From: an uncultured Streptococcus sp.
GTDB taxonomy: Bacteria; Bacillota; Bacilli; Lactobacillales; Streptococcaceae
Direction of reading: 5' to 3'
DNA length: 64,000 bases
Assembly: GCF_963456385.1 (NCBI RefSeq)
Contig: NZ_CAUOLF010000003.1
Coordinates: forward strand, 51,515 to 115,514
Positions 18,044-43,478 of this stretch are shown here, piece after piece. The translations under genes and the position numbers were made by a program. The stretch's first letter is position 1. Every line of letters begins with the position of its first letter. The notes under the pieces were generated by a model. That model made no database searches and was not told the origin of the DNA. It worked only from the letters and a program-made list of their open reading frames with translations.

Positions 18044-18612
18044 AAAGATGGTATTTGATGCGGCATGGTCAGACAGACTACAACCGCAGGCGCTGTTTCT
18101 ACGGCAGCCATGATGTCTCTATCAACGAGCAAGGCCAAGCGGACTCCAAGCAGCTGGCGCTACTGATGCAGGAGCACACGGTCGATGCAATCTACACTAG
18201 TAGTCTCAAGCGGACGCAGGAAACAGCCCAGCTGGCTTTTCCAGACAGGCAAGTCAAGGCCTTAGCTGATTTTGACGAGCGAGGTTTCGGACAATGGGAA
18301 GGTTTGACAGCTGATGAGATTCAGGCAGCCTTTCCAGAAATCTGGCAGGCTTGGCTGGAGGCTCCCTTTGAGATTACGCCTCCTGAGGCAGAAGTGTTCG
18401 CTGACTTTCAGACCAGAGTCTGGGCAGCAACAGACCGCCTGCTAGATAGTACTGAGGACTCAATCGCTCTAGTAGCTCATTTGGGAGTCCTTCGCTTGAT
18501 TTACCAGCATTTGGTTGATGGAGAGGCTGTTTTTTGGAACATTGATGTCCCCCAAGGACGAGTGCTGCTCTTGGAAGAGCGTGACCAGACTTGGCAGGCG
18601 ACCTTACTCTAA
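18040..18612 (+). CDS. cobC: alpha-ribazole/adenosylcobalamin-5'-phosphate phosphatase (histidine phosphatase)
   Basis: LMRHGQT, SSLKRT.ET, E.GFG.WEG, VAH.G; follows cobS. Confidence 0.88.
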   Translation: MKRWYLMRHGQTDYNRRRCFYGSHDVSINEQGQADSKQLALLMQEHTVDAIYTSSLKRTQETAQLAFPDRQVKALADFDERGFGQWEGLTADEIQAAFPEIWQAWLEAPFEITPPEAEVFADFQTRVWAATDRLLDSTEDSIALVAHLGVLRLIYQHLVDGEAVFWNIDVPQGRVLLLEERDQTWQATLL

Positions 18613-18667
18613 GGATTTATTATAAAAAAACAAACAATATGATTTATCTTGGGAAAGAGGTGACCAG

Positions 18668-19771
18668 ATGAATACACAGATTCAGGATAAATTTACTTTT
18701 AAAAATGGTCAGACTGTGCGCAATCGCGTTGTCTTGGCTCCCATGACCATCTGCGCTAGTGATCCGGGCGGCTATGTTTCTCAGGCAGATATTGACTTTT
18801 TTGCCCGCCGTTCGAGGTCGGTTGGCATGGTCATCACTGGCAGTACCTATGTCCGTCCTCTGGGCAAGTCCTTTGCGGAGAGCTTCAGCGGCGCCGAGGA
18901 CGATAAGATTGAGGGGCTTAGCCGTCTGGCCAAGGCCATCAAGGACCAAGGGGCTCTGGCTATTGTTCAGCTCTATCATGGCGGTCGTATGGTTCTGCCT
19001 GATTTGATTGACGGTCAGCCAGTAGCACCCAGTGCTGTTAAGGCTCCACGCGATTATCTGGCGGAGCCGAGGGCGCTCAAGAACGCTGAAGTGGAGCAGG
19101 TGATAGAGGACTTTCTGTCAGCTATTAGACGGGCAATTCAGGCTGGCTTTGATGGTGTCGAGCTTCATGGAGCCAATACCTACCTGATCCAGCAGTTTGT
19201 CTCTCCCCATTCCAATGTCCGTCAGGACAAGTGGGGCGGCAGCCTTAACAACCGCCTGCGCTTTCCAAAGACCTTGCTGAAAAGAGCCAAGCAACTGGTC
19301 AAAGAAGAGGCCGACCGTCCCTTCCTGATTGGCTACCGCTTTTCTCCGGAAGAGATTGAAGAGCCAGGAATCCAGCTTTATGATACCCTGCAGTTGCTGG
19401 AGCAGCTCATCTATCATCAGGTGGACTATCTGCATATTTCGACCTCTGATGTCTGGCGCTCGTCTATCAGAGATTCTCAGGACTCGGAGCCAGTGATTGA
19501 AAAAATTATCAGAAAAATTAATGATAGAGTGCCCCTGATTGGTGTCGGTCAGATTGAGACCAAGCAGGATGCCCAGCGTGTATTGGATGCGGGGATTCCG
19601 CTCTTTGCCCTCGGCAAGGCCCTGCTCCTAGACCCCGACTGGGCAGAAAAGGTTGTCTCTGGCCGAGAGGCAGAAGTCATCCGAGCTTATCGCGATGAGT
19701 TGCAGGCAGACTTGGCTCTGCCAACTGCCTTTGTCGAAGATGCTCGAAGCTATCTGGAAGGAAAAGATTAA
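18668..19771 (+). CDS. NADH:flavin oxidoreductase, Old Yellow Enzyme family
   Basis: NRVVLAPMT, QLYHGGR, AGFDGVELHGANTYLIQQF.SP.SN.R.D.WGG. Confidence 0.93.
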   Translation: MNTQIQDKFTFKNGQTVRNRVVLAPMTICASDPGGYVSQADIDFFARRSRSVGMVITGSTYVRPLGKSFAESFSGAEDDKIEGLSRLAKAIKDQGALAIVQLYHGGRMVLPDLIDGQPVAPSAVKAPRDYLAEPRALKNAEVEQVIEDFLSAIRRAIQAGFDGVELHGANTYLIQQFVSPHSNVRQDKWGGSLNNRLRFPKTLLKRAKQLVKEEADRPFLIGYRFSPEEIEEPGIQLYDTLQLLEQLIYHQVDYLHISTSDVWRSSIRDSQDSEPVIEKIIRKINDRVPLIGVGQIETKQDAQRVLDAGIPLFALGKALLLDPDWAEKVVSGREAEVIRAYRDELQADLALPTAFVEDARSYLEGKD

Positions 19772-19800
19772 GACAAGCACATCCCCAAGGAGGAAATAGA

Positions 19801-19863
19801 ATGAGCAATCACTTGTTTTTCATTCGTTTGCTCTCTCATCTTCAGGACATAGAACCACCTTAG
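19801..19863 (+). CDS. putative 20-aa leader peptide MSNHLFFIRLLSHLQDIEPP
   Basis: Perfect AAGGAGG at 19787-19793, 7 nt before ATG; too short for the ORF track; overlaps a stem-loop. Confidence 0.6.
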   Translation: MSNHLFFIRLLSHLQDIEPP

Positions 19864-19947
19864 ACAGAGAGCGAAGCGTATTTAGATTTGACTAGGACAG
19901 ACCGTCTTAAAGTAGTTTACAAAATAGAAAAGGAATTTGAATATTTT

Positions 19948-21483
19948 ATGAAACATTTTAAAAAGATTATGGCTCTAGCCTTGGCAGGCCTAGCCCTAGC
20001 CTCCTGTGTAAACCCTAGCAAAACCAGTGAGCCTACTGGCGATAGTGACAGCAAGACTGTAACTATTGGCTATACCCAGTTTCCAGCAAATGTAGATCCA
20101 GCAGCGGAATACAATGGCTGGTTCACGGTCCGTTACGGAGTGGGAGAAACCCTCTTTAAGATGGACGACAAACTTGAGGTAAAACCTTGGCTGGCTGAGA
20201 AAATCGAAGCAGTCTCAGACCTAGAGTGGAAAATTACCCTCAAGGATAAGGTGACTTTCCAAAATGGTGAAAAAATGACTGGTGAAAAGGTCAAAGCCTC
20301 TCTGGAACGCTTGATTAAGACCAGCGAACGGGCAGCATCAGATATGGGCATTGACAGCATATCTGCAGAGGGTCAAACTGTGACCATCAAGACAAAGGCT
20401 GTGCAACCGATCATGGCGAATCTCTTGGCAGAGCCATACTCCGCCATTGTCGATACGACTGGCAAGAGTGCATCTGACAAGGCTCCTGTCGGAACTGGCC
20501 CTTACATGGTGACCAAGTACACTCCTGAGAGCGGAGCAGAGCTCAAGGCTTATGATGACTACTGGGATGGCAAGCCAAAAGTTGCTAATCTGAAGATCAA
20601 ATACTTCTCTGATCCGACAGCTATTTCTGCAGCCCTCAAGTCTAAGGAAGTCGATGCCGTCTATGGTCTGCCTTATGCAAATCTAAGTACCTATGCTTCC
20701 GATAAGAACTACAAAATTTCTGAAGTAGAAGGTTCTCGCTACCTAGCATATTACTATAACTTTGAAAATCCTTACGTAGCAGATGACAAGTTCCGTCAGG
20801 CTTTAGATACCTTGGTAGACAAGAAGACCTACTCTGAATCCCTCTTTAAAGGCTCAGCTGTACCAGCTGTTGGACCTTTCCCTAAAGGGTTTGCCTTTGC
20901 TCTGCAAAAGAGCGTCCATGAATTTAACGTAGACAAGGCTAAGAAACTCTTGGATGAAGCTGGCTACAAGGATACTGACGGCGATGGCTACCGTGAAAAA
21001 GACGATCAAAAAGTCAGCATTGAGCTGCTGTCCTTTACTCGTCTGCCTGAAATGCCGCTGGCTGTAGAAGCAAGCCAACAACAACTCAAGGAAGTCGGAA
21101 TCGAAGCGACTATTAAGAAAGTTGAAGTCAGTGCCGTTGCCAGTGAAAAGGACTATGCCTTCACACCTTACGCGGTGGTAGCAGCTCCTATCGGTGATCC
21201 ATATGCCTTCTTCAACAGTGCCGTTAAGACCAATGGTACAGCCAATATCGGTCACTACAGCAACCCAGAAGCAGACAAGAAAATCGAAGAGCTGGCGACT
21301 GAAACTGATCCAGCTAAGCGCAATCAGCTCAGCAAGGAAATCCAAGAAATCATGGATAAGGACTACGGCTTTACCATCATCGGCTTCTTCAAGGTCGCTC
21401 TGGTAATGGACAAGTCGGTCTCTGGTCTGGAATCCCATCCGACAGACTACTATCACGTCAGCAACAAACTATCAAAGGAATAA
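19948..21483 (+). CDS. ABC transporter substrate-binding lipoprotein, family 5 (peptide/nickel/opine)
   Basis: Lipobox LASC; ETL, PWLAE, L+D.V.FQNG, PVGTGPY, YWDGKP. Confidence 0.92.
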   Translation: MKHFKKIMALALAGLALASCVNPSKTSEPTGDSDSKTVTIGYTQFPANVDPAAEYNGWFTVRYGVGETLFKMDDKLEVKPWLAEKIEAVSDLEWKITLKDKVTFQNGEKMTGEKVKASLERLIKTSERAASDMGIDSISAEGQTVTIKTKAVQPIMANLLAEPYSAIVDTTGKSASDKAPVGTGPYMVTKYTPESGAELKAYDDYWDGKPKVANLKIKYFSDPTAISAALKSKEVDAVYGLPYANLSTYASDKNYKISEVEGSRYLAYYYNFENPYVADDKFRQALDTLVDKKTYSESLFKGSAVPAVGPFPKGFAFALQKSVHEFNVDKAKKLLDEAGYKDTDGDGYREKDDQKVSIELLSFTRLPEMPLAVEASQQQLKEVGIEATIKKVEVSAVASEKDYAFTPYAVVAAPIGDPYAFFNSAVKTNGTANIGHYSNPEADKKIEELATETDPAKRNQLSKEIQEIMDKDYGFTIIGFFKVALVMDKSVSGLESHPTDYYHVSNKLSKE

Positions 21484-21486
21484 AAC

Positions 21487-22269
21487 ATGCTGGAAATGAA
21501 AGATCTGCTGGTGCAGTCAGCAGATAAAGTCATTCTCGATCGGGTCTCCCTCTCTCTTGCTGAGGGGGAGTCCCTTTCGATTGTGGGCGAGAGTGGCAGT
21601 GGCAAGTCTACCCTGCTCAAAATGCTGCTGGGTCTCCCTCTCAGGGGGCTGACAGTAACAGAGGGCAGTATTACTTTTGAGGGGCAGGAAATTCAGCCCC
21701 AGGACCACCGTATTTATCTGCCTTTTGTGGGCCGAGAAGTGGCCTGGATTAGCCAGCATGCCAGTCTCAGCTTTAATAACCGCCGTAAGATCAAAAAGCA
21801 TTATCAGGACTTGGTGAAAAATCAGAGCCACCAAGCAGCAAATCTCCGTCCCTTGGAAGAATGCCTAGAGATGGTGGGGCTGCTGCCTGAAAAAGTCGTC
21901 AATAAGTATCCTTTCGAGCTCAGTGGCGGTATGATGCAGCTAGTCGGTGTGGCGCTAGCTCTAGCTAGCAGACCCAAACTATTGCTGGCTGATGAGCCGA
22001 CTAGCGCTCTGGATGTCCTGTCGAAAATGAAGCTGCTTGTTCTCTTGAGCAAGCTTCATCAGGAGGAAAACATGGCCATTCTCTTTGTCACTCATGATAT
22101 CAGCGTAGCTGAGCATCTGGCGCAAAAAGTAGTCGTCATGAAGGAAGGACAGATTGTCGAAATCGGTCCAGCCCATCAAGTTCTCTGCCATCCTGAGCAG
22201 GCCTATACCCAGAAATTGCTGAAGGCCGTGCCTAAGCTAGCAGCATTTAGAGAAGGGGAGCAGCTATGA
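21487..22269 (+). CDS. peptide/nickel ABC ATPase (OppD/NikD-like)
   Basis: VGESGSGKS, YPFELSGGM, ADEPTSALD. Confidence 0.93.
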   Translation: MLEMKDLLVQSADKVILDRVSLSLAEGESLSIVGESGSGKSTLLKMLLGLPLRGLTVTEGSITFEGQEIQPQDHRIYLPFVGREVAWISQHASLSFNNRRKIKKHYQDLVKNQSHQAANLRPLEECLEMVGLLPEKVVNKYPFELSGGMMQLVGVALALASRPKLLLADEPTSALDVLSKMKLLVLLSKLHQEENMAILFVTHDISVAEHLAQKVVVMKEGQIVEIGPAHQVLCHPEQAYTQKLLKAVPKLAAFREGEQL

Positions 22270-23036
22270 ATCAAGTATTGATCGGTCGCCAGTTGACCTA
22301 CGAGTACAGTCAGATAGGCGAGCGGAGAATCGGTGTCTTTGATATTGACATTAGCTTGGAAAAGGGACAGGCTTTGGGTCTGGTCGGTGAATCAGGTTCA
22401 GGTAAGAGTACCATTGCCAAACTCATCTGCCGCTTTTTAAAGCCAGACCAAGGGGAGCTGACTCTACTGGGCCAGCCAGTCTCTGCCTACAAGGATAGGG
22501 ACTACTATGCTCGGGTCCAGTATATCGCCCAGCAGCCCCAGTCGACCTTTCATCCCAAGCGCAGCATTCAGCAGAGCCTAGAAGAGGTCTGTCGAAACTT
22601 CTCTCTCTACCAGCAGCAGTCAGATAGAAAGCAGGCCATCCATGACTTGCTGAGATCGGTTGGTCTGACACCTGAGCTTGCCCGGCGGCTGCCGCACCAG
22701 CTGAGCGGAGGAGAATGCCAGCGGGCGGCTATTGCCCGTGCCTTGGTGATTAATCCCGATGTGCTCATCTGCGATGAAATCACCAGTGCTCTGGATGTGA
22801 CCGTTCAATATGAGGTCATGCAGCTGCTGGCAGATATCAAGGAGCGCTCGCAAACCTCCTTTCTCTTCATCTCTCATGACATCGCACTGGTCAGCAATTT
22901 TGCGGAAGATTTGGTCGTCCTCAAGGACGGAATCGTGCAAGAAAAGGGCAGCATGCGAGAGGTCGTCTCTGCTCCTAAGAGTGACTATACCAAGCTCTTG
23001 CTCAGTCAGTACAGGGAGGATAAAGATGAGGATTAA
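22266..23036 (+). CDS. peptide/nickel ABC ATPase (OppF/NikE-like)
   Basis: VGESGSGKS, PHQLSGGECQR, CDEITSALD. Confidence 0.93.
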   Translation: MNQVLIGRQLTYEYSQIGERRIGVFDIDISLEKGQALGLVGESGSGKSTIAKLICRFLKPDQGELTLLGQPVSAYKDRDYYARVQYIAQQPQSTFHPKRSIQQSLEEVCRNFSLYQQQSDRKQAIHDLLRSVGLTPELARRLPHQLSGGECQRAAIARALVINPDVLICDEITSALDVTVQYEVMQLLADIKERSQTSFLFISHDIALVSNFAEDLVVLKDGIVQEKGSMREVVSAPKSDYTKLLLSQYREDKDED

Positions 23037-24009
23037 GCAAGAACTAGACTCTATGGCTCCTTGCAGCAGCTATCAAGGCAGTCTGCCCATCACAGATGAG
23101 CTGGCTATCCAGTACACTCTGCTTAAAGGACAGGCTACCCAGCCCTTGCTGACCATCAGTGCTGCAGTCCATGGCTGCGAGTATGTCGGAGTTAAGGCGC
23201 TGATGGACTTGGCGCATGAATGGGACTTTAACTTTCAGGGCTCTGTCCTCCTCCTGCATGCAGTCAATGTCAGCGGCTTCTGGGCTCGGGAGACGACGCT
23301 TGTACCTGAGGACGGTCTCAATCTAAACAGGATCTTTCAGGACCAAGGGCCAGTTTCCAGCCTCAGCTATCAGATTCGGTCTGTGATTGAGAGCCAGGTC
23401 TTTAGTGTCAGTGACTTCCTGATTGACCTGCACAGTGGTAATCGGGAAGAACTGCTGACCCCTCATGGTTACTATTCTCTGCGGGCGAATCCAGAGGTGG
23501 TCGAAAAGTCCTATCAGATGCTGCAGGCTTCTGGGACACCGATTATCTATCAATCTCAGGACCGCGGCAATCTTTATCACGCTGCCTCGGTGGACTATGG
23601 TTTGCCTAGCATCCTGCTGGAGCGGGGAGAAAACGGCACCTGTCTGCCAGAGGATGTGCTGGCCATGAAAGAGTCGGTCAAACAAGTCGCCCGCTATCTT
23701 TTTGAAGGGAGCATGCCCTATTATAAGCAGGCGCCACTGATCTTTGATGACAGCTACTATCTGAACTGTCAGAGGTCGGGCTGCTGGATGTGCTTTGTCC
23801 GTCCCAATCAAACAGTACAGGCTGGTCAGGTCATCGGTGAAATCTGTGATATTTATGGCAATATTTTAGAAAAGGTGACTGCCAAGGAAGATGGTCTGGT
23901 CCTCTACCAGAAAGCGACCTTGGTCGTCCACCAAGGCGAAGTGCTGTTGGCTGTAGCTAGCAAGAAGCCTGGAAGCTACCAGACATCTGAAAGGGAGGCG
24001 CATGATTAA
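23026..24009 (+). CDS. M14-clan succinylglutamate desuccinylase/aspartoacylase-family metallohydrolase
   Basis: HGCE zinc motif, NLNRIF, IDLHSG, LLERG, C-terminal barrel (V.AGQVIG.I.D); ATG at 23026 after GGGAGG. Confidence 0.88.
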   Translation: MRIKQELDSMAPCSSYQGSLPITDELAIQYTLLKGQATQPLLTISAAVHGCEYVGVKALMDLAHEWDFNFQGSVLLLHAVNVSGFWARETTLVPEDGLNLNRIFQDQGPVSSLSYQIRSVIESQVFSVSDFLIDLHSGNREELLTPHGYYSLRANPEVVEKSYQMLQASGTPIIYQSQDRGNLYHAASVDYGLPSILLERGENGTCLPEDVLAMKESVKQVARYLFEGSMPYYKQAPLIFDDSYYLNCQRSGCWMCFVRPNQTVQAGQVIGEICDIYGNILEKVTAKEDGLVLYQKATLVVHQGEVLLAVASKKPGSYQTSEREAHD

Positions 24010-24997
24010 ATTTATTATCAAAACTATTCTGCAATTCGTCCTCATCCTGCTCTGCGTCAGCTTTATCTCCTTTTTACTGGTTTATCTAGCACCGGGAGAT
24101 CCGGCTGAGAGCATCCTCAACGCTCAGGGCATTCCTTATACCAAGGAACTGTTGGAAATCAAACGAGCAGAGATGGGACTGAATGGCAGCTTTATGGAGC
24201 AATATCTGGCCTGGCTGGGCAGGATTGTCCATGGTGACTTTGGTGTGACCTATAATTCTGGAGCTTCGGTCTGGGAGCAGCTGGTTTTCTATTTTCCCAA
24301 TACAGTCTACCTAGCTTTTTATACCCTGCTAGCGACTCTGGGGATTTCCCTGCCGACAGCTCTCTACACATCCTACCATGCTGGAAAGCCTATCGACCGC
24401 TTCCTGATGGCAGGTCTGGTCTTCCTGAATGCCATTCCTAGCTTTGTTATGGGAATTATCCTGATTCTGATTTTTTCTGTTCAGCTTCACTGGTTTCCCA
24501 TTCAGGCAACGGCTAATGAGCTGGGTCTAGTCTTGCCAGTCATGACACTGGCCATGATCATGTCCACTCGCTATATCCCGCAGCTGCGAACTGCTCTGAT
24601 AGAAGTACTGCATTCGCCAGAAGTCGAAGGTGCGCGAGGTCGAGGGATTCGAGAGGGCCATATCCTGTTGCACGATGTGATTTACAATGTCTTGCCCTTT
24701 CTTCTGACCTTGGTCAGCCTTTCTCTGGGCTCGCTCTTAGGCGGTGTGGCTATTATCGAGCACCTCTTTTCCTGGCCGGGCATCGGTAAGATGCTGATTG
24801 GCGTAGTCGCCAATCGGGATTATCCCCTCATTCAGGGGGCGGTCCTCTTTATCACAGCGGGAGTCTTGACTGTAAATCTAGTCTTTCAACTGCTCACGGT
24901 TTGGCTCAATCCTCGCATCCGACTGGCTCAGGAAAATCCCAAACTGCTGCCGCGTATGAAGAAATTAAAAGCAAGCAAGGAGGGTTCGTATGGATAA
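24002..24997 (+). CDS. peptide/nickel ABC permease (OppB/NikB-like)
   Basis: LAPGDPA, GDFG.TY, ARGRG, IE.LFSWPGIG, RDYPLIQG. Confidence 0.93.
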   Translation: MIKFIIKTILQFVLILLCVSFISFLLVYLAPGDPAESILNAQGIPYTKELLEIKRAEMGLNGSFMEQYLAWLGRIVHGDFGVTYNSGASVWEQLVFYFPNTVYLAFYTLLATLGISLPTALYTSYHAGKPIDRFLMAGLVFLNAIPSFVMGIILILIFSVQLHWFPIQATANELGLVLPVMTLAMIMSTRYIPQLRTALIEVLHSPEVEGARGRGIREGHILLHDVIYNVLPFLLTLVSLSLGSLLGGVAIIEHLFSWPGIGKMLIGVVANRDYPLIQGAVLFITAGVLTVNLVFQLLTVWLNPRIRLAQENPKLLPRMKKLKASKEGSYG

Positions 24998-25799
24998 GAA
25001 AATCAATCGAAAACTCCTGATTTTGGGCGGCCTTATCATCCTGGCCCTAGTCCTATCCTCCTTGGCTCCTCGTCTCTTGGGTGACAGTTTGACCAAGGTC
25101 AATCTAGGTCAAGCCCTGCAAGGACCGAGCAGCAGTGAGTGGTTCGGAACGGACGCTCTAGGCCGCTCTGTCTTTGCACGTGCCGTGAGCGGAGGCGCAG
25201 AAACGGTCCTGCCGGCCCTGATGATTTTGATGCTGATTGCGGCGGTGGGCTCCTTTATCGGAGTGACCAGCGCCTTCATCGGCGGGAAATTCGACCAGCT
25301 CATCTTGCTGGTAATCACGGTCTTTCAATCTTTCCCATCTATCATTTTGGTCATTGCCATCGTCAGTATCTTGGGGATCGGTCTCCAGCAGACACTCATC
25401 GCTATCTGCCTGACGGCCTGGACCAAGTACGCCTACCTGATGCGTTCCATGACCCTGCAACTGAAAAATGAACCCTATATCCAGTCCTCGAAAATGTATG
25501 GCAATAGTTTTTGGACTACCCTGAAAAACTATTATTTTCCTAGTCTATTTCCTCAGATTCTGACAACCATGAGCTTTGACATCAGCACCATTATCATGGA
25601 AATCGCTGGTCTCAGCTTTGTCGGCTTGGGAGCTCAGGCACCGTCGCCTGAGTGGGGAGCCATGATTAATGATGGCCGGATTTACATTCAGGAAGCCCCT
25701 TGGATTGTAGTCTTCCCTTGTATCTTGCTGATTCTGACTATTCTCCTCTTTACCAAGTTCGGGGATGCTCTCAACAGCAAGTACAATCGCATGAGTTAA
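24990..25799 (+). CDS. peptide/nickel ABC permease (OppC/NikC-like)
   Basis: FGTDALGRSVFAR, LSFVGLG.QAPSPEWG.MI, GDAL. Confidence 0.93.
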   Translation: MDKKINRKLLILGGLIILALVLSSLAPRLLGDSLTKVNLGQALQGPSSSEWFGTDALGRSVFARAVSGGAETVLPALMILMLIAAVGSFIGVTSAFIGGKFDQLILLVITVFQSFPSIILVIAIVSILGIGLQQTLIAICLTAWTKYAYLMRSMTLQLKNEPYIQSSKMYGNSFWTTLKNYYFPSLFPQILTTMSFDISTIIMEIAGLSFVGLGAQAPSPEWGAMINDGRIYIQEAPWIVVFPCILLILTILLFTKFGDALNSKYNRMS

Positions 25800-25894: not shown

Positions 25895-27502
25895 ATGAGA
25901 AAAAAATTATTTTTATTAGTTGTCCTCTTGCTGCCTTTATTCTTGGTAGCCTGCCAGCAAAACTCAAACTCTTCCCAACAGGTCAATGAGAAAGACAAAC
26001 TCACTATGGTCTGGGGTGAAGACTTTGGGGATGTCAACCCTCACCGCTACAATCCAGACCAATTTGTCATTCAGGATATGGTCTATGAAGGCCTGGTCCG
26101 CTACGGTGACAATGGGAAAATCGAGCCAGCCTTGGCAGAAAGCTGGGATATCAGCGAAGATGGTAAAACCTATACCTTCAAGCTGAGAAAGGCAAAATTC
26201 TCAGACGACTCTGACTTTAATGCAGAGAATGTCAAACGCAATTTCGATACAGTCTTTTCAGAAGAAAATAAGAAAAACCACACTTGGTTTGACTTTACTA
26301 ACCAATTGGAAAGCTACCGAGTTGTCGATGAGCATACCTTTGAGATTAAGCTCAAACAAGCCTACAGTGCGACTCTCTATGATTTATCAATGATTCGTCC
26401 AATCCGCTTCGTAGCTGATGCTGCCTTCCCTGACGGAGATGACACAACTAAGGACAACCTCAAAAAGCCAATCGGAACCGGTCAATGGGTTGTCAAAGAC
26501 AAGAAGGCAAATGAGTACATCACTTTTGCCCGTAATGAAAATTACTGGGGTGAAAAGCCTAAACTGAAAGAAGTAACGGTCAAGATTATCCCAGACCCAC
26601 AAACCCGTGCTCTTGAGTTTGAGTCTGGCAATGTTGACTTGATCTATGGAAATGGCGTTATCGGTCTGGATAACTTTGCCAAGTATGCCAAGGATGATAA
26701 GTACACGACAGACGTATCTCAGCCTATGTCCAGCCGCCTCATGCTCTTGAATGCCAAGCAAGAAATTTTCAAAGACAAGACTGTCCGTCAGGCGATGAAC
26801 CATGCGGTTGATAAGAAGTCTATCGCGAAAGACATTTTCCGCGGCACAGAAACACCGGCTGATACCATCTTCTCCAAGTCTACTCCGCACTCTGACGCCA
26901 ATCTGACTCCCTATGAATACGATATCGAACTGGCTGAAAAGATGCTGGATCAAGCAGGCTGGAAGAAAGGCTCTGACGGTATCCGCGAAAAAGATGGCAA
27001 GAAATTGAGTCTCAATGTCCCTTATATCTCTTCTAAGGCGACAGACAAGGACTTGGTTGAGTACTTCCAAGGCGAATGGAAGAAAATCGGTATTGACGTT
27101 CAGCTCAAAGCCATGGAAGAAGATGACTATTGGGAAAATATTAAGACGGGCGACTTTGATTTGATGCTGACCTTCTCTTGGGGAGCACCTTGGGATCCGC
27201 ATGCTTGGATGACTGCCCTGACTTCACCAGCAGACCATGGCCACCCAGAAAATGTTTCCCTAGAAGCTCTGCCATCTAAGTCAGAAATGGACAGCATTAT
27301 AAAGGCGACTCTGGTTGAGCCAGACGAAGCAAAAGTTGATGAAGGCTACAAGAAAGTCCTCACCATGCTCCATGATGAAGCTATCTATATTCCAATCACT
27401 TATCAATCCGTTGTTTCCGTCTACCGCAAGGGAGAACTTGATGGCATGCGTTTTGCTCCAGAAGAAAATGCCTTCCCACTGCGCTACATTGAGAAAAAAT
27501 AA
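25895..27502 (+). CDS. NikA/CntA-like nickel/cobalt-metallophore binding lipoprotein
   Basis: Lipobox LVAC; NPH.Y..DQF..Q.MVYEGLV, IRPIRF, PIGTG.W, SWGAPWDPH resembling E. coli NikA WGAPYDPH. Confidence 0.85.
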   Translation: MRKKLFLLVVLLLPLFLVACQQNSNSSQQVNEKDKLTMVWGEDFGDVNPHRYNPDQFVIQDMVYEGLVRYGDNGKIEPALAESWDISEDGKTYTFKLRKAKFSDDSDFNAENVKRNFDTVFSEENKKNHTWFDFTNQLESYRVVDEHTFEIKLKQAYSATLYDLSMIRPIRFVADAAFPDGDDTTKDNLKKPIGTGQWVVKDKKANEYITFARNENYWGEKPKLKEVTVKIIPDPQTRALEFESGNVDLIYGNGVIGLDNFAKYAKDDKYTTDVSQPMSSRLMLLNAKQEIFKDKTVRQAMNHAVDKKSIAKDIFRGTETPADTIFSKSTPHSDANLTPYEYDIELAEKMLDQAGWKKGSDGIREKDGKKLSLNVPYISSKATDKDLVEYFQGEWKKIGIDVQLKAMEEDDYWENIKTGDFDLMLTFSWGAPWDPHAWMTALTSPADHGHPENVSLEALPSKSEMDSIIKATLVEPDEAKVDEGYKKVLTMLHDEAIYIPITYQSVVSVYRKGELDGMRFAPEENAFPLRYIEKK

Positions 27503-30862: not shown

Positions 30863-31438
30863 ATGAAACGTACTTTTGAAACGAGAAAACTTTACTTCGG
30901 CTTTCCGGTCTTCTTCTTAGGCTATAAGGACGATGTCCACGGTTATAATATTTCAACCTCAAGCTCGGTTTATTCCTTGGGCAGTATGATGGTTATTGCC
31001 ATGCGTACCAAGGGGAATGCTATTACAGAGATTACCAAGCACCAGCAATTCACAATCAATGTCCCTGAGAAGGATTTGACCAAAGAGTCTGAAATTGCTG
31101 GCTTCAACAGCCGCAAGGACAAGTTTGCCCTGACCGGTCTTAGCTACACAATCGGCGAGACCGTGGATGCGCCGCTGGTAGACCAATGCCCTGTATCCAT
31201 TGAATGTCAGGTGCTGGATATGGTCGAATGCGGTGCCTTGACCAATGTCATCGCCCGTGTCACTCGGCGCGTGGTTGATGAAGACTTGATTGATGAGAAT
31301 GACGCTTTCCGCAGTGACCGTTTTTCTCCTATCAGCTACATGGGAGATGGAGATGGCCGGATTTACCGCTATTTTAACGACGAGTCGGTCAAGATGGGCT
31401 CCATTATCAAAGAAATCCGCAAACAAGAAGAAAAATAA
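30863..31438 (+). CDS. flavin reductase-like (flavoredoxin family) FMN-binding protein
   Basis: LYFGFPV, FTINVP, AG..S.KDKF, V.APLV.QCPV.IEC. Confidence 0.85.
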   Translation: MKRTFETRKLYFGFPVFFLGYKDDVHGYNISTSSSVYSLGSMMVIAMRTKGNAITEITKHQQFTINVPEKDLTKESEIAGFNSRKDKFALTGLSYTIGETVDAPLVDQCPVSIECQVLDMVECGALTNVIARVTRRVVDEDLIDENDAFRSDRFSPISYMGDGDGRIYRYFNDESVKMGSIIKEIRKQEEK

Positions 31439-41017: not shown

Positions 41018-41617
41018 ATGCAACTCTATACAAAAACAGGTGACAAGGGCTTGACCAAGCTAGTTGGCGGCCAAAGTGTTGCCAAGGATGCAGAACGAGT
41101 GAATGCTTACGGAACCATTGATGAGCTGAACTCTTGGATTGGTTATACTATTACCAAGCTGGACAAGGATGATAAGCTGAGAGATGAGCTGCTCCAGCTG
41201 CAGCATTATCTCTTTGACTGTGGTTCAGACCTCTCTACTCCTCAGGGAGTTTACCCTTATAAGGTCGATCAGCAGCTGATTGACTGGATTGAGGAGAGGA
41301 TTGATACCTACGCAGAAATTCCACCGGCTCTGGAAAGGTTTATCCTGCCAGGCGGTGACGAGATTGCTTCCATGATTCATGTGGCTCGGACCATTGCAAG
41401 ACGGGCAGAGCGTCATATCGTAGGGGCTATGTGGACTACAGAAATTAACAATAATGTCCTGATTTTTGTCAACCGTCTATCAGATTACTTCTTTGCCTTG
41501 GCTCGAGTAATCAACTTTACTAAAAACCAGGAAGACATCGCCTATGAAAGAGGTGCCAAGGTCTTCCACAATATCACCAAGGCGGATGTTGAGCGTTGGG
41601 CAAGCAAACGCCAGTGA
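41018..41617 (+). CDS. pduO: PduO-type ATP:cob(I)alamin adenosyltransferase (copy 2)
   Basis: LYTKTGDKG.T, VNAYGTIDELNS, FILPGG, ARRAER, NRLSDYFF. Confidence 0.92.
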   Translation: MQLYTKTGDKGLTKLVGGQSVAKDAERVNAYGTIDELNSWIGYTITKLDKDDKLRDELLQLQHYLFDCGSDLSTPQGVYPYKVDQQLIDWIEERIDTYAEIPPALERFILPGGDEIASMIHVARTIARRAERHIVGAMWTTEINNNVLIFVNRLSDYFFALARVINFTKNQEDIAYERGAKVFHNITKADVERWASKRQ

Positions 41618-41755: not shown

Positions 41756-41920
41756 CTAGCTTTCCAATTATTGACTCTGCTCCTTTGCAGAAAGACAAGA
41801 GAAACCTCATCTTTAGAAAATTAACGTACTTAAACGTAGAGTCAATAATGGAAACTAAGCTAAAATGTTTGTTCCAAACTGACATCACTACCTTACATCG
41901 AGGCATGAAATCTACTAAAA

Positions 41921-42009
41921 TTTAAGAATAAAGACCTGACTTAAAGCTGAAAAGCTTATCACAGTGGCGGGACCGCGCTGGATTTGCACCAGACTTCCAT
42001 ATCCTTAAA
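41921..42009 (-). promoter_or_regulatory. cobalamin (AdoCbl) riboswitch aptamer, compact eut-type
   Basis: Minus strand GGAAGTCTGGTGCAAATCCAGCGCGGTCCCGCCACTGTGA...AAGTCAGGTC (T-loop and B12 box), closed by TTTAAGGATA/TATTCTTAAA. Confidence 0.92.
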
Positions 42010-42038
42010 AGTACTAAAATCAATTTCCTAGTAACTAG

Positions 42039-42204: not shown

Positions 42205-42302
42205 AGTACAAAGGGGTACTGAAGATAAATAAGCAATGAAGCTATATGAAAATGCTGTGACGTGTGTAGGGGAGCAGTCTTATTTTCATATAGTTTCTTT
42301 TT
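42205..42302 (+). promoter_or_regulatory. ANTAR dual hairpin overlapping an intrinsic terminator (eutG leader)
   Basis: agtac-AAAGGG-gtact; agc-AATGAA-gct; terminator GAAGCTATATGAAAAT/ATTTTCATATAGTTTC plus T run. Confidence 0.92.
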
Positions 42303-42335: not shown

Positions 42336-43478
42336 ATGTATAAGATTTCCTATAAGACTGAATTGCATGTGGGCAAGGGCGCTCTGCAGCAATTAAGCCA
42401 TTATAAAAACGAGCATATTTTAGTCGTTGCCGATCCTTTTTTGAAGACATCTGGCACGCTGGATGCTATTTTAGCCAACTTTGATGACAGCAATGATATT
42501 GTTGTTTTCACAGATATTGTGCCTGATCCGCCAATCGAAACAGTTGTGGCTGGTATCAAGAGTGCAGGAGACAGACCAATCAGCATTGTGCTTTCTATTG
42601 GCGGAGGCTCTGCCATTGATGCTTCCAAGGCTATGTATTATTTTGCCAAGAAGCAGGGTGCCTTCTCAGAGGCCATTCTCATTGCCATTCCTACAACGAG
42701 CGGAACTGGATCTGAAGTAACGTCCTTTTCTGTCATCACGGATTCAGAGAGAGGGACCAAATATCCTTTAGTGACCAAAGAAATCCTTCCGGATGTTGCA
42801 ATCTTAGATGCGGATTTGGTTCTGTCCCTTCCTGGTAACATAACGGCTGACACTGGAATGGATGTACTGACCCATGCCATTGAAGCTTATGTATCGACCA
42901 AGGCTACGGACTTCTCTGATGCCTTGGCTGAAAAGGCGATCAAGCTGGTCTTTGAATACTTGCCTAAAGCCTACAAAAATGGTCAGGATGTAGAAGCGCG
43001 TGAAAAGATGCATGCAGCATCCACTCTGGCTGGTATGGCCTTTAACACAGCTTCTTTGGGTATCAATCACAGTCTGGCACATGCGGCAGGAGCTAAGTTC
43101 CATGTACCTCATGGTCGTTTAAACAGTATTTTAATGCCCCATGTCATTCAGTATAATGCTGGTATCGAATTCAACAATCGGAACCGGCAGGCGACAGACA
43201 AGACTGTAGCGAGCCGCTATCAAGATATTGCCAAACTATTGGGATGCAGTGCTTCAAGTCCTGTGTCAGGAGTAAGACAGCTGGTTGAAGCCATCAAGAA
43301 ACTACAAAGAAAGCTGGAGATGCCAACTTCTCTCAGAGAATATGGTGTGAAAGCAGATGCTTTTGCTCAGTACAAGGTAGAAATTTCAGAAGCTGCTCTG
43401 CATGATGGCTGTACTCCGACTAACCCTCGCGTCCCTACGGCAGAAGAACTGCTTAAAGTATTAGAGAAAGCGTTTTAA
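42336..43478 (+). CDS. eutG: iron-containing alcohol dehydrogenase (EutG/PduQ type)
   Basis: [47 protein letters not shown]. Confidence 0.9.
   Translation: MYKISYKTELHVGKGALQQLSHYKNEHILVVADPFLKTSGTLDAILANFDDSNDIVVFTDIVPDPPIETVVAGIKSAGDRPISIVLSIGGGSAIDASKAMYYFAKKQGAFSEAILIAIPTTSGTGSEVTSFSVITDSERGTKYPLVTKEILPDVAILDADLVLSLPGNITADTGMDVLTHAIEAYVSTKATDFSDALAEKAIKLVFEYLPKAYKNGQDVEAREKMHAASTLAGMAFNTASLGINHSLAHAAGAKFHVPHGRLNSILMPHVIQYNAGIEFNNRNRQATDKTVASRYQDIAKLLGCSASSPVSGVRQLVEAIKKLQRKLEMPTSLREYGVKADAFAQYKVEISEAALHDGCTPTNPRVPTAEELLKVLEKAF

Follow-up and report, generated by a model that had tools for sequence, protein, structure and literature searches.

Does the DNA between an old-yellow-enzyme-type gene (OYE) and the first gene of a predicted nickel/cobalt-type ABC importer hold a small gene, and if it does, how would that gene act? 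The question arose from a first-pass annotation of a 64,000-nucleotide stretch of a Streptococcus genome (the window), in which an unannotated upstream ORF (uORF) of 20 codons, ending in Glu-Pro-Pro-stop inside a hairpin, was proposed to be a ribosome-stalling attenuator of the importer. Our analysis indicates that the annotation was right about the ORF and probably wrong about its output: what stands is a genuine small ORF under selection, constrained mostly toward its C-terminus before an invariant PP, and what falls is the hairpin as the output of attenuation.

The binding protein encoded from 19948 shares 96-99% identity with records under the names S. sanguinis and S. panodentis, which places the window in the Streptococcus sanguinis group. 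The uORF lies in a run of same-strand genes that begins with cbiA, about 6 kb 5′ of the window, and continues through cob and hem genes, cobC, OYE, importer 1 and importer 2 to a flavin reductase-like gene ending at 31438; apart from cobC, the cob and hem genes are named putatively, from their sequences. According to a published account, the cobalamin cluster is a species-typical core feature of S. sanguinis (PMC5462765). The uORF would give a first handle on the regulation of the uptake genes attached to this cluster. The OYE stop lies 29 nt upstream of the uORF start, and the SD of the uORF is found 15 nt past that stop (Table 1).

Table 1. Features of the uORF and its neighbourhood, in window coordinates
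Feature	Position	Strand	Remarks
OYE, old-yellow-enzyme-type NADH:flavin oxidoreductase	18668..19771	+	after cobC; PF00724; NamA/OYE models below cut-off
SD of the uORF, strong	19787..19793	+	AAGGAGG, 7 nt 5′ of ATG 19801
uORF	19801..19863	+	20 codons, MSNHLFFIRLLSHLQDIEPP, Glu-Pro-Pro-TAG end; unannotated; C-terminal half under purifying selection
Hairpin over the uORF end	19825..19878	+	arms 19825-19836 and 19866-19878; core TCTC/GAGA and inner pairs near-invariant; no covariation
Predicted Rae1-type cut position	19846..19851	+	between 19848 and 19849, GAC/ATA; 12 nt 5′ of the stop; from the Bacillus rule as reported (PMC12407103)
Spacer from uORF to importer	19879..19947	+	weak SD AAGGA (19930-19934); neutral as a reading frame; carries indels
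Importer 1 family-5 solute-binding lipoprotein, Opp5A/SaNikA-like	19948..21483	+	NF045468 410 bits (cut-off 600); PF00496; best PDB matches 3t66, 4ofj
Remaining importer 1 genes: two ATPases, AstE/AspA-type deacylase (23026-24009), two permeases	21487..25799	+	PF24827 over cut-off
NikA binding protein of importer 2	25895..27502	+	TIGR02294 735 bits (cut-off 393)

The reading frame and its start signals

The perfect SD, the 20-codon frame with its Glu-Pro-Pro-TAG end and the weak, distant SD of the binding-protein ATG (only AAGGA, 13 nt upstream) are all present as the first-pass annotation had described them. Short ORFs with such a start are scarce, as the non-coding DNA of the genome, about 286 kb, has only 20 of them (at most 60 aa, AGGAGG-N5-10-ATG). 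In the predicted fold, the SD of the uORF is partly paired (opening about 11 kcal/mol). A terminal PP occurs in none of the 1884 long ORFs of the genome, but about one is expected from the internal PP frequency, so this count alone is not significant; terminal Pro makes up 1.6% in long ORFs versus 3.4% for Pro overall. The peptide has a hydrophobic N-terminal half and a conserved polar C-terminal half with His13, Asp16 and Glu18, and the helical hydrophobic moment of residues 7-17 is 0.64, a value attained in 4.5% of shuffles. Its two His codons are separated, and the run of cognate codons that marks a His attenuator is absent.

No paralogue of the uORF was found in its own genome by tblastn or blastn; second blastn matches in two other genomes (G074 and G117) were chance matches antisense to a lipoprotein-like gene. 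The exact 20-aa alleles of the window and of locus L043 (coordinates verified) are absent from a collection of 15 billion proteins, and searches for a protein family, a parent protein or an Atlas look-alike of the peptide found none. A search of literature listings returned no paper describing this ORF.

Conservation and selection

Among 33 sanguinis-group loci compared, 32 contain the region. The frame from ATG to Pro-Pro-TAG is intact in 31 of these 32 genomes, and AGGAGG is likewise kept in 31. When 150 other Streptococcus genomes were searched, 11 matched the DNA over its full length (92-98%), and the ORF is intact in every one of them. The SD, start and stop form islands in fast-changing DNA, with 0.17, 0 and 0 variants per base, respectively, versus 0.94 and 0.86 in the DNA around the SD. 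In metagenomes, a pattern search yielded 92 stretches, and of the 80 examined, 71 were unrelated chance frames and 9 were of the sanguinis type; ATG to PP-TAG is intact in 9/9 of the latter, which are not independent of the peptide because the search pattern contained it.

Variants were counted at codons 2-20 in 37 haplotypes from 81 partly redundant loci, with a read-through allele excluded. The 20 distinct variants comprise 11 synonymous and 9 non-synonymous changes, versus 27% synonymous expected (P = 0.007), and the excess is limited to the frame of the uORF itself (P = 0.38-0.92 in the five other frames). It is stronger in codons 10-20 (8:3, P = 0.002), a split between N- and C-terminal halves that was set post hoc. 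The omega of the uORF is about 0.33 among 31 genomes (P = 0.002-0.03 for kappa 1-6), with 0.70, near neutral, in codons 2-9 and 0.16 in codons 10-20 under the same post hoc split. For comparison, omega is 0.11-0.18 in OYE, 0.12 in the mature binding protein and 1.01 in the in-frame DNA past the stop, which also carries indels. These tests rest on few variants and tree-free counts, recombination is likely, and the split was picked after the data had been seen.

The same skew is visible in S. panodentis, where all four changes in the C-terminal half are synonymous and three residues of the N-terminal half differ, His4 included. The conserved C-terminal motif is L-[LI]-S-H-[LR]-Q-D-[IT]-E-P-P-stop. 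Of the two His residues only the second, His13, is invariant, His4 being replaced by Arg in S. panodentis; this weakens the earlier suggestion that the pair could sense metal or histidine. One natural allele (L044, 2850-2948) carries a 4-nt duplication and reads through after PP into a 32-aa product with all 20 residues kept; the same peptide is present as ENA protein P0063. This allele is a ready-made control.

An arrest peptide would be expected to show just such constraint, weighted toward the C-terminus ahead of an invariant PP. From its sequence, the uORF is a genuine small gene that had escaped annotation, is confined to one clade and bears the signature of an arrest peptide, and we consider it very likely that it is translated and selected.

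Taxonomic range and locus rearrangement

The uORF was found only in the S. sanguinis group. The peptide pattern (exact residues, one mismatch, a stringency that diverged relatives would escape) gave no hit in 400 other Lactobacillales genomes. Among the matches listed, none of 13 loci of the S. parasanguinis/australis type (74-76%) has an SD-led uORF before the binding protein, which in the three mapped loci directly follows cobC; it is also absent, again among the matches listed, at the S. suis-type loci, in G130, at four importer paralogues of 50% identity and at clostridial loci. After OYE, the uORF is absent in at least 11 of 13 other-species loci, that is, in all 11 for which downstream DNA was listed. 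The gene next to OYE in other streptococci is nikA, flavin reductase or another gene, and the nikA gene of importer 2 directly follows OYE in several of them. The uORF thus marks the junction at which importer 1 separates OYE from nikA. It was accordingly rejected both as a companion of OYE, whose other-species loci were seen without the peptide, and as a companion of the importer, since the non-sanguinis importer loci examined are without it too.

The order cobC-OYE-importer is a patchwork among loci (L066, L079, L245 and L279). OYE and the deacylase are both missing at this locus in S. parasanguinis, importer 1 and the deacylase are located away from the cob genes in S. suis-type genomes and in G130, and at some other loci OYE leads straight into nikA. 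A paralogue of importer 1 (50% identical) adjoins larA-/larE-like genes at four loci (L283-L286, e.g., L283:1-7843), putatively the lactate racemase genes larA and larE; nickel as a substrate of the importer family would fit because of this adjacency.

Transcription across the region

Two stranded RNA-seq runs (X18 and X19) were available from one study of a related strain about 95% alike, with an insensitive library type. In both, sense-strand coverage is unbroken from OYE through the uORF and the spacer into the binding-protein gene. Depth is flat in X18 (337, 364, 356 and 370 over these four parts) and falls from 345 to 240 in X19, about 30% lower and below the variation within genes. No pile-up of read ends was seen in the region, where strain mismatches confound end analysis, and a small-RNA run (X21), which had no reads on either stretch, gave no information. 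An antisense RNA or type I toxin was rejected on an antisense depth of 0-2 versus about 340 for sense. A putative internal promoter (TAGACA-16-TAGATT) was also discarded, as its spacer length shifts by indels among strains, and so was a read-through fusion to the binding protein, since many strains lack a continuous frame (spacings -145 to -151) and the post-stop omega is 1.0.

The hairpin as a proposed attenuator

According to the first-pass annotation, a ribosome paused at PP-stop would cover the 3′ arm and prevent the hairpin; in such a model, transcription termination or a block of the importer's ribosome-binding site would be lifted. The arms and the inner TCT/AGA and AGG/CCT pairs that it named were recovered as the MFE structure of 19820-19885. 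This segment, which was cut around the hairpin, folds at -17.6 kcal/mol (z = -3.36, 0/200 shuffles); the fold of the intergenic region as a whole does not stand out (z = -1.09, 29/200 shuffles). In the 37-haplotype alignment 94.7% of cells pair, the geometry places a terminating ribosome on the 3′ arm, and the decrease in X19 falls just past the hairpin, all of which speak for the proposal. X18, however, shows no drop there. The tract TATTTAGATTT is present after the hairpin as described, but it is not a terminator U-tract; it is neither long nor conserved, differing among strains (TATCTAG and TATATAG alleles), and no terminator-like site was found in 18400-20100. As a check, the annotation had proposed looking in orthologous regions for a conserved SD, frame and PP-stop and for hairpin covariation. 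The first three are borne out in 31 of 32 genomes, but compensatory change is seen in 0 of 18 pairs (7 vary by breaking only and 10 are invariant), a test low in power because the sequences are 92-100% alike. The outer pairs are each broken in 3-11 of the 37 haplotypes, and past the stop no stretch varies more than the 3′ arm (0.60 variants per base, with indels in addition).

A switch at the importer binding site is not predicted either. In the folding model, its opening energy is 5.6 kcal/mol when free versus 6.2 with a ribosome at the stop (means over 37 haplotypes), and ranges from 5.5 to 6.2 kcal/mol for a modelled ribosome at initiation, codon 9 or the stop; an erm/cat-type translational attenuator was rejected because the stalled ribosome leaves the downstream site no more open. 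TnaC acts via Rho, whereas no match to Rho over the cut-off was found in this genome (best 40 bits versus 509), so a Rho-dependent, TnaC-type leader was rejected as well. A His-codon attenuator was set aside given two separated His codons of which one is not invariant, as was closing of the uORF's own SD upon stalling, which exceeds 1 kcal/mol in just 13-18 of 37 haplotypes. Rfam gave no match at the gathering score (best E 3.5). The uORF thus failed the terminator-based, Rho-based, binding-site-switch and His-codon attenuator tests, and a conditional weak terminator, though conceivable, has nothing in its support. With no U-tract, no compensatory pairs, no Rho, no binding-site switch and no marked step-down in RNA-seq, the hairpin attenuator appears improbable.

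An imperfect inverted repeat, TAGGAC-N5-GTCTTA, lies at 19893-19909, where the spacer varies least (0.22 variants per base), and may serve as an operator or form a small hairpin.

Proposed stalling at the stop codon and mRNA decay

mRNA turnover is the remaining cis output, because no terminator, Rho or binding-site switch was found. We tentatively favor, at rather less than an even chance, a peptide that acts in cis: by stalling at PP-UAG it would affect the processing or decay of the mRNA, in the manner of spyA and bmrX with Rae1 in Bacillus. Given translation and selection, stalling would probably be the function, and, given stalling, an output via decay seems about equally probable. The uORF would be translated, as its SD and the selection signal suggest, termination would be slow at PP-UAG, as known effects of Pro before a stop suggest, and the output would be mRNA turnover. 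A queue of ribosomes would expose the mRNA to cleavage by Rae1 about 12 nt 5′ of the stop codon, and it would depend on the leading ribosome whether RNase J is held back from the importer fragment or let through. Stalled ribosomes would in this way set both the cutting of the long mRNA and the survival of its importer part, so that a lifetime would be tuned and no terminator switched. Importer expression could rise or fall in this scheme, and EF-P status, Ni/Co or His would be candidate signals.

This model draws on work in B. subtilis, where Rae1 is reported to cut the mRNA 12 nt upstream of a stalled ribosome at the spyA or bmrX stop, and cleavage at bmrX to shut down an ABC transporter message (PMC10351889, PMC12407103). 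For spyA, UAG is described as the stop most sensitive to Rae1 (PMC10351889, PMC12407103, bioRxiv 10.64898/2026.10.09.757949); Rae1 substrates are said to be creatable by a PP motif, to require at least 15 codons and to be disfavored at C-rich sites (bioRxiv 10.64898/2026.10.09.757949). Stalled ribosomes and strong SDs are also reported in Bacillus as 5′ roadblocks that shield downstream RNA from 5′ decay (PMC3997798), and terminal Pro is associated with slow release and possible tmRNA rescue (bioRxiv 10.64898/2026.10.08.757592; PMC11890864). The genome studied here encodes Rae1 (PF05991, 171.6 bits), two RNase J and EF-P. A Rae1 gene, a length of 20 codons and a predicted PP-UAG stall site are all present, as a Rae1 target would require. 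The context at -12 is middling (CAGGAC/ATAGAA in 24 of 36 haplotypes, with C at -6 and -1 and none downstream), and the two C may count against a Rae1 cut because Rae1 prefers C-poor sites. Further points against the decay model are the similar RNA-seq depth on OYE and the binding-protein gene (in an insensitive library of a strain about 95% alike), the loss of the PP-stop in the L044 allele, the existence of orthologous importers without the uORF, and the predicted partial pairing of its SD.

If these inferences hold, the uORF would work like spyA and bmrX or like TnaC-type stop-arrest ORFs. From the published descriptions, spyA (S1025; 17 aa) and bmrX (26 aa) are likewise cryptic short ORFs inside a polycistron (PMC10351889, PMC12407103, bioRxiv 10.64898/2026.10.09.757949), bmrX also precedes an ABC transporter, and a UAG stop and a length of at least 15 codons favor cleavage. 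Both show peptide-dependent stalling at the stop, which for the uORF is only inferred. Unlike the uORF, their C-termini as given in these sources (EKDQV and KIEGG) are without PP, and bmrX lies downstream of a true attenuator; no sequence similarity to either was seen, and cleavage in the uORF is a prediction at a site with two C. TnaC, PepNL and NanCL are described as short upstream ORFs with arrest at their stops, and in TnaC the terminal Pro is required, P24A attenuating arrest; unlike the uORF, they are 5′ leaders of E. coli genes (PMC11890864). uORF2 of hCMV gp48, a 22-residue helical peptide with Pro-Pro-stop that blocks termination and in which both prolines are reported to be critical, is an analogy only, as it acts by a scanning block on a eukaryotic ribosome (PMC4605324). 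A Pro before the stop also links the uORF to the C-terminal tagging motifs Pro-stop, Glu-Pro-stop and Pro-Pro-stop (credited to Hayes 2002 and Woolstenhulme 2013), at which release is slowed and tmRNA rescue can be triggered; these are described as context effects in E. coli and not as conserved regulatory genes.

An extension of the stalling model, which we regard as a long shot, is that the invariant His13-x-x-Asp16-x-Glu18-Pro-Pro reads Ni/Co or a metal-His complex in the exit tunnel and gates termination at UAG, with ribosome queues and Rae1/RNase J deciding the survival of the importer end of the ~37-kb cobalamin run. Metal sensing would then act through mRNA decay, and this in an operon with no match to a B12 riboswitch at its first gene. 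Natural termination-arrest peptides are not predictable from sequence, and in the literature consulted on Rae1, regulatory short ORFs linked to it are described from B. subtilis only. A selected, strongly initiated 20-codon PP-UAG ORF with natural alleles, one of them stop-less, offers a test of deliberate stalling in the processing of a streptococcal operon, with a general impact limited by its narrow range.

Other readings of the peptide

The amino-acid-level selection could also be explained by a small amphipathic protein acting in trans, for example by binding OYE, the deacylase or an importer subunit, with the PP-stop incidental. The hydrophobic moment, the co-transcription with candidate partner genes and the retention of all 20 residues in the read-through allele agree with this. 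Although it is the main rival, we consider it rather unlikely: OYE orthologues occur without the peptide in at least 11 of 13 other-species loci, the importer does so in all non-sanguinis loci examined among the matches listed, no protein relative was found, and the constraint is skewed to the C-terminus with a near-neutral N-terminal half. The product could also be an exported signal, a metal-binding peptide or an enzyme substrate, taken up or processed by the adjoining importer and deacylase. The two-part layout of the peptide and its place directly before a SaNikA-related family-5 importer, and before the deacylase, would suit such a role, but S. suis-like genomes and G130 have both importer and deacylase and no such peptide. 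Precursors of the SHP/XIP type have a Lys-rich N-terminus and a hydrophobic mature tail; the peptide has neither, and no Rgg-type regulator or modifying enzyme was recognized by eye among nearby ORFs. This reading is very unlikely, and the specific version raised in the first-pass annotation, a substrate of the neighboring enzymes, loses weight since orthologous OYE and deacylase genes exist without the peptide.

The uORF could instead be a functionless leftover: the 5′ end of a gene since lost, retained with its SD at the joint between importer 1 and the cob operon. Its restriction to one clade and its position at a rearrangement junction would be expected of such a remnant, its SD follows the OYE stop at a distance usual for an operon gene, a read-through allele exists, and in the window its frame is open as far as the binding-protein gene. 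All alleles but one, however, have the same stop, so that the synonymous bias must be younger than any truncation, and the DNA past the stop is neutral with indels. A 49-residue read-through query (short, and thus of limited reach) against 1.84 billion representatives retrieved just the read-through allele and no parent. A leftover is therefore improbable, about as much so as the hairpin attenuator.

Additional observations in the window and genome

An AdoCbl riboswitch (130 bits) was found at 41877-42025 on the minus strand of the window, divergent from eut-type genes that start at 42336; it faces the 3′ end of a plus-strand gene that ends at 41617. It possibly belongs to a B12-controlled small or antisense RNA of the kind of EutX/Rli55 or aspocR. 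One match to a EutV-site motif at 42232-42243 is at chance level. No cobalamin riboswitch was found before the first cob gene (cbiA-like; G000:C3:45160-45455), the genome's only RF00174 match being that at 41.9 kb of the window. Elsewhere in the genome, an SD-led ORF of 36 aa with a Cys/Gly-rich tail (G000:C28:5283-5393, minus strand) resembles NxxC-class precursors of streptococcal radical-SAM RiPPs.
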